Shown piece by piece: positions 8,411 through 14,388 of a DNA stretch of 32,348 nucleotides. A model generated the notes under the pieces. The model saw only the letters and a program-made list of their open reading frames with translations, made no database searches and was not told the origin of the DNA. Position 1 is the stretch's first letter. Each line of letters starts with the position of its first letter. Location: the NCBI GenBank assembly GCA_039680575.1, contig JBDKSP010000033.1, forward strand, positions 1 through 32,348, in the 5' to 3' direction. The position numbers were made by a program, and so were the translations under genes. Source of the DNA: Armatimonadota bacterium. Lineage in GTDB: Bacteria > Armatimonadota > UBA5829 > DTLH01.

Positions 8411-9321
8411 TGTTTCACCTCCGTCTCATAGTAGACCCATCTGCCGGAGAGTTTGAAGACAAGGAGCGTGAGCACGAGCACGATTGCGAACAGAATCCAT
8501 GCAAGAGCCGATGCGTAGCCCATCTGAAGATATTTGAATGCCTTTTGATACAAGTACAGCACATAAAACAGGGTGGAATATCCCGGACCGCCGTTCGGGG
8601 TCATGATAAACGATGCCGTAAACACCTGAAAACTGCCGATTATCCCCATTATCAGGTTGAAAAAGATCGTGGGAGAGATCATCGGGATGGTAACGGTCCA
8701 GAATTTCTTCCAGGAGCCCGCGCCGTCTATCTCGGCGGCTTCGTAAAGCTGCGTCGGGACTCCCTGAAGCCCGGCGAGGTAGATAATCATCCCGCCGCCT
8801 ATCCCCCACAGGCTCATTATGACGAAAGATGGGAGCGCCCATGCCGGGTCTGAAAGCCACGGTTTCGGACCGATGTGCATCAGGCCGAGAATGTAGTTCA
8901 ACACCCCGCCCTGAGGCTTCAGTATCCAGAGCCAGAGCATCGTGACTGCGACTCCGGGGAGTATGGCCGGGATATAGAATATCGACCGGAACAACCGCAT
9001 GCCTTTGAGCTTTAGGTTGAGGAGCACGGCGAGCGAAAGCGACCCGATGAGCCCCAGCGGGACGCTGAACGCGGCGTAAAGCGCCGTCACCTTGAGCGAC
9101 TGCCTGAACCGGAAGTCATCGGTAAAAATCGTTCTGTAATTTTCGAGCCCGACAAACTTCGCGGGGGTGATGAGGTCCCATTTCATCAGGCTGATGATGA
9201 ACGAGAAGACCATCGGCCCCAGCGTAAGCAAAAGGAACCCGATGAGCCACGGAGCTATACAGAGATAGCCCTCAAAAGCCTCTTTTCGCGCTAATCGACC
9301 TCGTTTTTGCCTTTTACTCAT
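8407..9321 (-). CDS. Carbohydrate ABC transporter permease (MalF/UgpA type)
   Basis: FVGLENY, LYEAAEIDGAG, MGYASALAW. Confidence 0.93.
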   Translation of the reverse strand: MSKRQKRGRLARKEAFEGYLCIAPWLIGFLLLTLGPMVFSFIISLMKWDLITPAKFVGLENYRTIFTDDFRFRQSLKVTALYAAFSVPLGLIGSLSLAVLLNLKLKGMRLFRSIFYIPAILPGVAVTMLWLWILKPQGGVLNYILGLMHIGPKPWLSDPAWALPSFVIMSLWGIGGGMIIYLAGLQGVPTQLYEAAEIDGAGSWKKFWTVTIPMISPTIFFNLIMGIIGSFQVFTASFIMTPNGGPGYSTLFYVLYLYQKAFKYLQMGYASALAWILFAIVLVLTLLVFKLSGRWVYYETEVKQ

Positions 9322-9331
9322 CCTGATGCCT
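9289..9331 (+). repeat. Direct repeat copy 1 flanking the RAYT cassette
   Basis: 9289-9324 is identical to 10043-10078 (36 bp); 9320-9331 also matches 10080-10091. Confidence 0.9.
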
Positions 9332-10040
9332 TGATGGGTCGGGGGTTCCTAGCCCCGACCCTGTTTCACGGGTATCCATACCCGTTGCTGATCTACCAAG
9401 TAAGTGGTGCTATCGCTATTTCAGGATCAACTTCCTGATAGTAGAACTTCGCGCTGGAATGTTTCCAGTCAGAAGGATCATCAACATAACCAGCCCGAAG
9501 AGGGTTTTCATGTATATATTTCAGTTTTTGATCAAAGAACTTCTGGCTGTATACCTGTTCAGGGTGAAACTCATCCTGCCAGAACTTATAATCCGCTTGT
9601 TTTCCACCTGCTGATCTCATAGCCCTAATCCAGACATCTCTTCCATCTGTATGCATCATTTTTATGATCTTCCTAGATGTAAATCCCTTAAGATCAGCTA
9701 TAACTCTAGAGAGTGCTCCATTTTCTTGAGAACAGATTAAATGAAAATGGTTAGGCATAAGAACATATGCGTGGATATTTAGCCCCTTTTTCTGTGAACA
9801 ATATACAAGGCTATCTTCCAGAACTTGGAAATACTCATTTTTACTGAAAACAGGCAGCCAGTAGACTATAGTGCTGGTAATGAAATAAGGATATTCACGC
9901 TCGTGTATTCGATACCTTTGTGACACTGCTTATAACCTCAAAACCGGTCCTGTAACTGCAAGGTATAATTATGCCAAAACGGGTCAGGGGACTTGGATGT
10001 CCCAGAAACGGGCACGGGGCATGGATCCCCCGTGCCATCA
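9332..10040 (-). mobile_element. RAYT/REP cassette (REPtron-like) inserted in the ABC operon
   Basis: Y1 HUH gene flanked by inverted TGAT+9-bp-stem hairpins (9332-9361 and 10011-10040) plus inner hairpins; visibly AT-richer than its flanks; long direct repeats outside. Confidence 0.8.
9393..9926 (-). CDS. REP-associated tyrosine transposase (RAYT/TnpA-REP, Y1 HUH family)
   Basis: YFITST, AYVLMPNHFHLI (HUH), DLKGFTS, FWQ..FH, YIHENP (catalytic Tyr), W.HSS; GTG start with GAGGT RBS. Confidence 0.9.
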   Translation of the reverse strand: MSQRYRIHEREYPYFITSTIVYWLPVFSKNEYFQVLEDSLVYCSQKKGLNIHAYVLMPNHFHLICSQENGALSRVIADLKGFTSRKIIKMMHTDGRDVWIRAMRSAGGKQADYKFWQDEFHPEQVYSQKFFDQKLKYIHENPLRAGYVDDPSDWKHSSAKFYYQEVDPEIAIAPLTW

Positions 10041-10042
10041 GT

Positions 10043-10091
10043 CGCTAATCGACCTCGTTTTTGCCTTTTACTCATCCTAATCCTGATGCCT
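10043..10091 (+). repeat. Direct repeat copy 2 flanking the RAYT cassette
   Basis: 49 bp; same as 9289-9331 plus a 6-bp AATCCT unit overlapping the substrate-binding-protein stop codon. Confidence 0.9.
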
Positions 10092-12102: not shown

Positions 12103-13044
12103 TTATTTAACCAGCGCCTTTCTCATGACGACATACCGCCTTGACTCTACAAACCCCGCTTGCTGATACAGTTTTGCAGCCTTATCGTCAGTCCACATAA
12201 ACCATGCATTGTGCAACCCTTTGTCCCTCATCGCATACAAGCACCTGAAGAGAAGCACTGCACCAATGCCTCTTCCTCTCTCCTTCACAGCAACACCGAA
12301 CGGGCCGAATCGCTCCCCCTCATGCTGCGCAAACCCTAAAACCCGGTCTTTTTCGGCAGCTATCCATAGACTGTTCGGGAAATCCCTGTCGCTTGAGACC
12401 CGCGACATAGTCTCCCTCACGTACCGCTGCCAGTCGCCGGCAAACTCTGCCCTCACGAACTCCAGAAGCGGCAATATGTGGCCGGGATTGAACTGCTCCA
12501 CCGAGACTCCTGCTTTTGCGAGTTGCTGTTCCTTCTCTGACACCCATTCAGGAGTTTTGAGGCCTGGAAGGGACGCATCCATCGAGAGAGGCCGGTAGAC
12601 CTCCTCGAAACCGTTTTTCTTGAAGAACCCAACCGCTCCGGGATATGCGTTCACATCCACGCCGGGGGTAAAATAATTCGGCGCGTAGGGTGAAACCCAA
12701 ACGCTGGTCGATCTCTTCTCTTTTAAATACGGTTCAAGGCATCTCAACAATTCCATCCCGATCCCGTTTCCCTGATGTGACGGGTCTACGGCGATAAGTG
12801 TGATCCATGACCGGTCGAAATCCGGTATCTGGTCCTCGATCGGAAGTTTTCTCACGATTCCGAGGACGAACCCGGCCACTTCGCCGTCTTCCACCGCCAC
12901 AAGCGCACCATTAGAGTCGAAATTAGGGTCCAAGAGCACCTTCCGCTGAAACAGACCGCTTGGAATCCGGTCTGCGACAAGCGTCTTTTCAAGTAAAGCT
13001 GCCACTGCCTCGAGGTCGGATGGTTCAAATGGTCGGATTGTCAT
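12103..13044 (-). CDS. Tandem-domain GNAT N-acetyltransferase
   Basis: Two acetyl-CoA motif A copies (VDPSHQGNGIG; VAVKERGRGIG), FFKKNGF and LYQQAGF. Confidence 0.88.
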   Translation of the reverse strand: MTIRPFEPSDLEAVAALLEKTLVADRIPSGLFQRKVLLDPNFDSNGALVAVEDGEVAGFVLGIVRKLPIEDQIPDFDRSWITLIAVDPSHQGNGIGMELLRCLEPYLKEKRSTSVWVSPYAPNYFTPGVDVNAYPGAVGFFKKNGFEEVYRPLSMDASLPGLKTPEWVSEKEQQLAKAGVSVEQFNPGHILPLLEFVRAEFAGDWQRYVRETMSRVSSDRDFPNSLWIAAEKDRVLGFAQHEGERFGPFGVAVKERGRGIGAVLLFRCLYAMRDKGLHNAWFMWTDDKAAKLYQQAGFVESRRYVVMRKALVK

Positions 13045-13077
13045 CTCTAGCTATATCAATACTCTCTGCACAACATC

Positions 13078-13610
13078 TCGAATCGCGAAAAACGCGAAGA
13101 AGCGCGAAAGACACGAAAATCTAAGCCGAAAGACTTGCTAATTAACCGCAGCATATCTTCCCTGCTCATTTACAAAGCGCTTCACTTGTATCTTCGGCCC
13201 TCCAAAGTTTATGAGGAGTGCCAAACGGTAGCCGGATGCTTTGAGATAGCATAATGTCTGCATCATATCCTCAGGCAATAGCTCTTTTCGAGCTTTGGTC
13301 TCTACTATGCAGTCCCCAACAACGAAATCGACTCTTCTGGTATCTATGTGCTTGCCTTTATACATTACCGGCACATTCTCTTCTCTGGCAAAGTCAACTG
13401 ATGCAGCTTCTAATTCCAATGCCAGGCTGCGCTGGTAGACGACTTCTTGAAAACCAGGTCCGAGTTCCCTATGAACTTCGATAGCTGCTGCAATTATCCG
13501 GCCTGTAATATCTTCGAAGTCATACCCTTTGGTTGATAAAGCACTGCTCTCCAAGTATCTGAGTCCCCCTTTCGCGTCTTTCGTGCGATTTCGCGCATCT
13601 CGCGATTCAA
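13078..13610 (-). mobile_element. Putative GxxExxY element with terminal inverted repeats
   Basis: 13078-13118 and 13570-13610 are inverted repeats (32/41 identical) built from CGCGAA-like units; AACATC at 13072-13077 and 13611-13616. Confidence 0.6.
13138..13554 (-). CDS. GxxExxY protein (PD-(D/E)XK nuclease-like)
   Basis: AAIEVHRELGPGFQEVVYQ (GxxExxY), RVDFVV...IVETKA, Q...YLKASG...LLINFG. Confidence 0.92.
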   Translation of the reverse strand: MESSALSTKGYDFEDITGRIIAAAIEVHRELGPGFQEVVYQRSLALELEAASVDFAREENVPVMYKGKHIDTRRVDFVVGDCIVETKARKELLPEDMMQTLCYLKASGYRLALLINFGGPKIQVKRFVNEQGRYAAVN

Positions 13611-13614
13611 AACA

Positions 13615-14388
13615 TCAAACCCTGTACATCCGCATCGCATTCGCGGTAGTAATCTCGGCTGCGGCATCCAAGTCGATACCCTTCAGCTCCGCTATTTTTT
13701 CCGCGACGAGCTTCACAAACGCGGGCTCGTTTATCTTCCTTCCCCTGTACGGCATCGGGGTCATATACGGCGAATCGGTCTCGATCAGGAGACTCTCTAC
13801 AGGGACTGCGCGCACCACATCGACTAACTTCTCGGACTTGGAATACGTGACCGGCCCGGCCACACCGATATACATCCCTAGTTCGATAACGCGCATGGCG
13901 TATTCGGTATCCTCAGCGAAACAGTGCATCACCCCGCCGGCAGCCGGAAGCCCTTCATCTTCAATAATTCTGAGCGTATCAGCCCCGGCATCGCGGCTGT
14001 GAATAACAACAGGAATGTCAAGCTCTTTCGCCAGCTTCAGTTGACTGCGAAACACAGATTCTTGTAAATCTCTGGGGGACAAATCCCTGTAAAAGTCCAG
14101 CCCGATCTCCCCAAAAGCCACGACTTTGGGATGTACGGCGAGCTTTCTAAGCTCTGTAAGGGACTCATCCGTTACGGATTTTGCATCATGCGGATGCACT
14201 CCGACTGTTGCCCAGACATTCTCATACTTATCTGCAATCTCGACGGCACTTCTGCTCGAGGGCATATCCCATGCGACGCAGGCTATTCGATCCACACCCT
14301 CAGCCTCGGCACGGGCGAGTATACCGTCTATGTCGACTTCAAGCTGACTATCGTTTAGATGAGCGTGCGTATCGAAAAGCGTCTGCAT
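13615..14388 (-). CDS. tatD: TatD family metal-dependent DNase
   Basis: DTHAHL, GVHPH, GEIGLDF, IHSRDA, GVMHCF, ETDSPYMTP. Confidence 0.95.
   Translation of the reverse strand: MQTLFDTHAHLNDSQLEVDIDGILARAEAEGVDRIACVAWDMPSSRSAVEIADKYENVWATVGVHPHDAKSVTDESLTELRKLAVHPKVVAFGEIGLDFYRDLSPRDLQESVFRSQLKLAKELDIPVVIHSRDAGADTLRIIEDEGLPAAGGVMHCFAEDTEYAMRVIELGMYIGVAGPVTYSKSEKLVDVVRAVPVESLLIETDSPYMTPMPYRGRKINEPAFVKLVAEKIAELKGIDLDAAAEITTANAMRMYRV

Follow-up and report, generated by a model that had tools for sequence, protein, structure and literature searches.

A GxxExxY nuclease gene between inverted repeat arms: candidate selfish mobile DNA of an apparently undescribed type

Described systems and the layout of the cassette

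In the outline given by Bertels and Rainey (PMC3116915), REPIN-RAYT systems comprise one or a few repeat-flanked gene copies together with gene-less inverted extragenic doublets, and their turnover is slow. The cassette described here, found at the junction of a tatD and a GNAT gene in the window (the whole stretch of 32,348 nucleotides of Armatimonadota DNA that was analysed), resembles that outline in having one repeat-flanked gene, gene-less inverted extragenic doublets and slow turnover, with no fixed duplication here. It differs in that the flanked gene encodes a predicted PD-(D/E)XK nuclease instead of a Y1 HUH transposase, in that non-palindromic arrays built from 9-10 nt units make up the arms in place of short palindromes, and in that internal deletion of a cassette has given rise to at least one of the gene-less elements. 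DDE insertion sequences with MITE derivatives combine terminal inverted repeats, a single gene, deleted derivatives and relocation. The cassette shares the inverted repeats round one gene, the internally deleted derivatives and the relocation, but it has no DDE/RNase H fold and no fixed target duplication, it is far smaller (138 aa), and GxxExxY cassettes are rarely carried on plasmids or phages.

Furuta et al. describe transposase-free nuclease-fold genes between imperfect inverted repeats, leaving open whether their own products or an enzyme in trans is responsible; in the examples treated there, the repeats occur nowhere else in the genome, and the empty site agreed with a duplication of 8 bp (PMC2853133). 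As in those restriction-modification units, a nuclease-fold gene lies here between imperfect inverted repeats with no transposase, and a few GxxExxY cassettes with long duplications (L235, L227, L141) recall the "insertion with long target duplication" of that account. Unlike them, the cassette holds no methyltransferase or specificity gene and its arms are a dispersed repeat. The GxxExxY family (PF13366, PDDEXK_3) is widespread, and one survey enters it as a family whose function is not known and which has been transferred several times, the same source placing Tn7 TnsA, XisH, Cas4, YhgA-like proteins and the putative PDDEXK_2 transposases among PD-(D/E)XK proteins linked to mobility (PMC3424549). 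The GxxExxY protein appears to share the catalytic fold of TnsA, XisH and Cas4, and both Cas4 SSO0001 and XisH are among its structural matches. These proteins are accessories to a separate joining enzyme (TnsA needs TnsB, and Cas4 works with Cas1), whereas no gene for a joining partner lies inside the cassette.

Intergenic TAACTGA heptamers of Beggiatoaceae and cyanobacteria, a 7-nt unit proposed as possible regulatory sites (PMC4679880), are likewise short tandem intergenic repeats oriented to neighbouring genes, but the sections dealing with them mention neither GxxExxY nor paired inverted arms round a gene (PMC4679880). The cassette is also unlike a homing endonuclease element, since near-identical copies occupy unrelated sites and not one conserved site. 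In one account, a GxxExxY gene beside a reverse transcriptase was also called cas4 (10.1101/2021.01.26.428298). We found no description of such GxxExxY cassettes in the open-access literature searched. The curator comment on TIGR04256 may already refer to inverted repeats near these genes and to a transposase as their possible product; if this is so, the basic arm association stands in a database, though it is not worked out there. Since the defining features of insertion sequences, REPIN-RAYT, restriction-modification units and homing systems were tested and did not apply, we provisionally treat the cassettes as a new class, which behaves like selfish mobile DNA of an apparently undescribed type and for which we infer the role of the enzyme.

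Profile matches identify the upstream host gene as a TatD-family nuclease (13615..14388, minus strand) and the downstream one as a two-domain GNAT acetyltransferase (12103..13044, minus strand). The 5' (upstream) arm (13570..13612, minus strand) starts immediately past the tatD stop (13615-13617) and consists of a terminal T-run, GAATC and four units of CGCGAA type that recur every 9-10 nt; its sequence is common to the cassette of a same-genus relative (G001; the genome holding the window is G000) as far as 13612. Adjoining this arm, 9 nt ahead of a TTG start, is GGGGGA (13564..13569, minus strand), probably the ribosome-binding site of the GxxExxY gene (13138..13554, minus strand), whose 138-aa product has a predicted PD-(D/E)XK nuclease fold. 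The 3' (downstream) arm (13076..13118, plus strand) is inverted relative to the 5' arm, its outermost four bases being unlike the run present in G001. Between the cassette and the GNAT start, a spacer (13045..13071, minus strand) forms a ragged junction that has no counterpart in the empty G001 junction. The preliminary description, made from the letters of the window, had proposed inverted ends of 41 bp with four units each, and these are present: 13078-13118 aligns without gaps to the reverse complement of 13570-13610 at 32/41, each arm carries four C(G/A)CGA(A) units (offsets 6, 15, 25 and 34; period 9-10 nt), and the pair is the longest inverted repeat within 12500-14200. Open reading frames and a profile search also agree with it that the GxxExxY gene is the only one between the arms.

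Relocation and gene-less arm pairs

An empty allele of the tatD-GNAT junction, which had been suggested as something to look for in relatives, was found: the two genes are directly coupled in G001, G002, G003 and several distant relatives, which marks the filled state as derived. In G001 the cassette instead precedes valS, where it is 91.7% identical over 533 bp with similarity stopping at the arms, and the valS site of G000 has no cassette. These reciprocal filled and empty sites indicate that the cassette has relocated. The proposal of a roughly 530-bp element at operon junctions therefore stands for the arm-gene-arm unit, though not for the 6-bp target duplication that was part of it. Neither junction pair is clean, since both filled alleles contain roughly 30 additional bp. 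Since arms also precede valS in G004 and G005, valS may be the older site, from which the cassette was lost in G000. A strain about 95% identical (X2) carries the cassette at the same tatD-GNAT site in its contigs, and another X2 contig, possibly from another organism, has a 321-bp internal deletion. Excision junctions had also been suggested as a check; no joint removing the cassette was seen in contigs of four of six runs (X1, X2, X4, X5), contigs dropping rare variants and X4 and X5 covering little of the stretch. The contigs of X5, an RNA run, reach neither junction of the cassette.

The valS 5' region gathers insertions: by eye, L275 (G004) has an HTH and PIN-like gene pair and an arm, L271 (G001) the cassette and an apparent T-box terminator remnant, and L274 (G005) has arms. 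At L016, L019, L022 and L024, loci of more distant relatives, the tatD-GNAT spacer holds a small opposite-strand gene with CxxC motifs.

Arm sequences, most of them gene-less, are scattered through the whole genome, which the preliminary description had missed. At E<1e-6, nhmmer recovers 31 near-full copies of the 41-bp arm from G000, 29 of them beyond this cassette, and the genome has a single intact GxxExxY gene; with a looser motif there are 79 arms, compared with 1 when the genome is reversed. Neighbouring arms no more than 600 nt apart point inward in 13 cases, outward in 0 and in the same direction in 1, enclosing spans of 30-344 bp, and inside these 14 other arm pairs there is no other plausible gene. 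With a strict end motif only 9/31 arms have a partner, which reads as many arms having lost or changed theirs. The intergenic arm repeat reaches 22 to 117 matches per genome in 4 of the 5 genomes checked most closely. One G000 element (L317, C57:11865-12103), also present in G001, has a second, diverged GxxExxY gene reduced to its N- and C-terminal ends, which are joined to each other between arms of CGCGGA type, an arm type with 18 matches in G000. Because this element is an internally deleted second cassette, we read the gene-less, inward-facing arm pairs as derived from the cassette by internal deletion. Collecting the GxxExxY genes of G000, as had been proposed, thus yields one intact and one deleted copy, both with arms, and duplication is not a trait of the family.

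The GxxExxY protein and its arms

Testing the other GxxExxY genes of this genome for inverted arrays had been suggested; such arrays were also found at GxxExxY loci elsewhere, with a unit sequence that differs by lineage. Sufficient flanking sequence was available for 172 of 188 loci, and taking out near-duplicates left 144; an inverted-repeat score of at least 30 was reached at 88/144, compared with 9.9% of mismatched flank pairs, and 56/144 fell under this threshold. The direct orientation also scores at least 30 at 54/144, because whole hairpin units flank some of the genes. In a second set of 40 further loci (39 scored, two apparently repeating loci of the first set), 32/39 passed against 4.0% of mismatched pairs, and a locus's own partner arm was the best match in 27/39. 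Arm similarity rises with protein identity, a score of at least 30 occurring in less than 3.1% of pairs below 60% identity and in 85% of those above 90%. Arm sequence follows protein lineage, a pattern that co-inheritance alone could give.

Among cassette pairs with at least 85% protein identity, 38/76 share neither flank (the pairs are not independent). Cassettes follow a same-strand stop in 28/36 cases and precede a same-strand start in 27/36. GxxExxY genes are patchily distributed, occurring in 30/61 related genomes with 1-9 matches per genome. Three arm patterns occur in 23/61 genomes, 21 of which are GxxExxY-positive, a co-occurrence that is partly circular since the patterns were taken from cassettes of the same genomes, kin also not being independent. 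In L209, L216, L219 and similar Bacteroidota cassettes, a TGA in the arm can serve as the stop of the upstream gene, and the next start lies 5-9 nt beyond the other arm.

The 138-aa product belongs to the GxxExxY / PDDEXK_3 family, with profile matches to TIGR04256 (E=7e-36, 123 bits against a cut-off of 35) and PF13366 (E=3e-33, 115 bits against a cut-off of 22), and its closest titled homologs are mostly Armatimonadota records. The conserved positions are E37, D76, E85-x-K87 and Q99-xxx-Y103; across 142 proteins, E37, D76, K87, Q99 and Y103 are invariant (100%) and E85 is found in 99%. We take the QxxxY motif to be RecB/Cas4-like. A structure model (pLDDT 89) has a PD-(D/E)XK fold, and its best matches are the N-terminus of the type IIG restriction nuclease BpuSI (Z 8.6, rmsd 2.7, 98 aligned), a restriction-like protein (Z 8.2) and Cas4 SSO0001 (Z 7.8, rmsd 3.3, 100 aligned), which are tied within about 1 Z at values near 8 that are modest; further structural matches include Hjc and XisH. 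Among the fold matches listed there was no RNase H/DDE or HUH entry, a weak likeness still being possible. A PDB sequence search with the protein returned no match, and the ESM Atlas matches were only to GxxExxY clusters. The modelled fold and the E...D...ExK residues place the protein in the PD-(D/E)XK superfamily, as the preliminary description had stated for GxxExxY proteins. Since the catalytic residues and QxxxY are conserved in the 142 proteins, the protein is probably an active nuclease.

How the cassette might move

We favour, with a probability of about 0.55, a selfish repeat-armed system that is REPIN-RAYT-like in its organisation and is run by the GxxExxY nuclease plus host repair. 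Several GxxExxY copies would bind their cognate arms as DNA along the 9-10 nt units, each about one helical turn; the nuclease would nick or cut near the outer ends of the arms; and host repair would complete the insertion, leaving ragged junctions and no fixed duplication. Host repair would be needed for this joining because the PD-(D/E)XK fold hydrolyses DNA and is not, to our knowledge, able to join strands alone. The cassette, co-oriented behind a host stop codon, probably borrows host transcription, and it would be tolerated because it is intergenic and read from the host operon. We would give even odds to a wider proposal, in which GxxExxY proteins mobilise a new, minimal class of prokaryotic transposable element of ~0.5 kb. 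A lone restriction-type nuclease would then be addressed by tandem-repeat arms specific to its lineage, strands would be joined by host repair, and the nuclease would also maintain gene-less arm repeats in the spacers of many phyla. The arm of each lineage offers both a ready substrate and negative controls, so the function is directly testable. If the nuclease does move the element, this would amount to a new transposition chemistry in an autonomous element that ranks among the smallest known, and would account for a class of intergenic repeats.

It is possible, though we consider it unlikely, that the arms are instead non-autonomous, REPIN- or MITE-like sequences moved in trans by a RAYT/HUH transposase or by host repair, with GxxExxY as cargo such as an addiction nuclease or a hitch-hiker. 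RAYT-like genes occur in 41/61 genomes, including 29/30 GxxExxY-positive genomes compared with 12/31 negative ones, and in all 23 arm-positive genomes. G000 has two, one of them in the window, where it is flanked by palindromes other than the cassette arms, and the palindrome beside it recurs inside gene-less elements. The absence of a fixed duplication, as in HUH systems, and the PD-(D/E)XK fold with no known strand-joining step of its own are also in keeping with a mover in trans. However, among the 12 genomes with a RAYT-like gene and no GxxExxY gene, 10 have none of the three arm patterns and the other 2 have 3 matches in total, while G020 has a GxxExxY gene and no RAYT match. The arm pairs of G000 enclose no alternative gene, arm type tracks nuclease lineage, and tandem arrays of this kind are unlike REPs.

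The window RAYT-like gene itself (9393-9926, NF047646) lies between two GC-rich hairpins (region 9289-10088) and is bracketed by a direct repeat of about 46 bp (9289-9336, 10043-10088), a duplication of sequence from around the start of the next gene. The RAYT gene is missing from this place in G001, and the junction there is not a clean single copy. One relative, G033, has 53 RAYT-like matches, many of them in tandem, against 1-13 in the other relatives.

The preliminary description had also suggested that the arms pair in the operon mRNA and loop out the gene. As a full account, with the loop possibly processed by the nuclease and the insertion thereby rendered harmless or regulated, we consider this improbable. 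The transcript of the window is indeed predicted to fold with its arms paired (z=-4.45 against 20 shuffles), the stem extends through the hexamer by G.U pairs, and this copy is G.U-rich (11 G.U against 2 A.C). The arms are also strongly co-oriented with host transcription, 23/31 starting within 120 nt behind a same-strand stop compared with 118/400 random non-ORF positions, and the two arms of each locus match each other better than those of other loci. Yet across the family mRNA pairing is not supported as the constraint on the arms, since the coding strand has no G.U bias: under four alignment settings, mismatches in 60 loci were G.U in 61 cases and A.C in 69 (p=0.54), and those of the second set were 34 and 25. 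Equal numbers of G.U and A.C point to strand-symmetric mutation, as expected without RNA selection, and the excess of G.U beyond the arms is still present at a distance of 12-20 nt and seems to be a matter of base composition. Rfam has no match in the cassette, and pairing in mRNA would leave the relocation unexplained. Such symmetry fits duplex recognition, or hairpins on either DNA strand. Template switching, an established process at inverted repeats, may also explain why the two arms of a locus resemble each other so closely.

A cut-and-paste insertion of the classical kind, duplicating 6 bp of its target site, seems to us a shade more improbable still. AACATC does directly abut both outer ends, as the preliminary description had reported (13072..13077 and 13611..13616, plus strand), and the reciprocal filled and empty sites are what such movement would leave. 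The chance of the hexamer match is 2.6e-4 at a fixed register and about 0.65-0.9% with several registers (0.65% with 25), for a match that was selected after the fact. The left copy overlaps the arm terminus, and in the right copy two bases belong to the tatD stop and two are the terminal TT of the arm, a TT that precedes 25/31 arm copies in G000. Similarity to the G001 cassette extends to 13612, inside the right hexamer; ends placed by this common sequence leave no more than 2 bp duplicated. The single AACATC expected at an empty site is absent from the G001 tatD-GNAT junction, and the G001 copy of the cassette has no flanking duplication. The search for duplications took in 36 anchored cassettes out of the 88 with arms and covered the register of the hexamer, registers with some slack and every offset up to 19; none of the 35 others has even 4 bp duplicated at the hexamer's register. 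In the second set, 0/34 have at least 6 bp and 2/34 at least 5 bp, compared with 1.0 expected. No duplication of fixed length was found in the 36 anchored cassettes, in 101 loci examined by local alignment of 60-nt flanks or in the 34 further loci. Nor is the predicted fold of the protein of DDE type. We read the AACATC pair as probably a coincidence or a one-off repair scar and not a target-site duplication. A degenerate duplication taking in more of the tatD 3' end was rejected as well: it scored 12, no better than the hexamer, and 59% of mismatched pairs reach that score.

The 60-nt flank alignment did score at least 24 at 6/101 loci, compared with 0.2 expected. Four of these (L031, L100, L165, L198) are repeated modules and two (L141, L235) are true long duplications; with L227, a diverged relative of L235, they form Bacteroidota cases with long flanking direct repeats, from 18 to more than 50 bp. 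The upstream reading frame of L235 apparently has its end duplicated, and the neighbours of L235, L227 and L141 are, we presume, type I restriction-modification genes.

Movement appears to be slow, most copies being common to the congener. Of 28 G001 arms compared with G000, about 12 have an arm at the matching site, 2 are decayed and 4 absent, ten sites not being settled, and of the 7 gene-less G000 elements tested among 14, 5 are wholly or partly common to G001 and 2 are cleanly absent. The GxxExxY gene reads as vertically descended under purifying selection with one relocation: 33 codons differ between the G000 and G001 cassette genes, 26 synonymously and 7 by replacement, and divergence at four-fold sites is 16/56 (0.29) compared with 0.34-0.41 for host genes. 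Although these observations, the single intact copy and the rarity of GxxExxY genes in plasmid (7/72,556) and phage (2/50,697) records would suit a domesticated host gene with regulatory repeats, whose apparent relocation was an old duplication followed by differential loss through hairpin-promoted deletion, the derived filled state at tatD-GNAT, the patchy distribution and the unrelated neighbours of the cassettes make this the least probable account.

A second repeat, with a 7-nt period, wraps many of the G000 arms, for example in L321 (C88:2606-2811) and L323 (C4:10190-10533). A TIGR02436 four-helix-bundle gene was sought in G000 as a partner of these outer repeats and was not found. G001 cleanly lacks two nested 7-nt-repeat elements; the 4-5 bp repeat at TAGCT in these cases could be either an insertion site or the result of hairpin deletion. 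AGCT recurs 7, 14, 21, 28 and 35 nt outside the arms at 44/79 arms, compared with 70/400 random spacers, a pattern not seen beside the gene-carrying cassettes (3 and 1 of 36).
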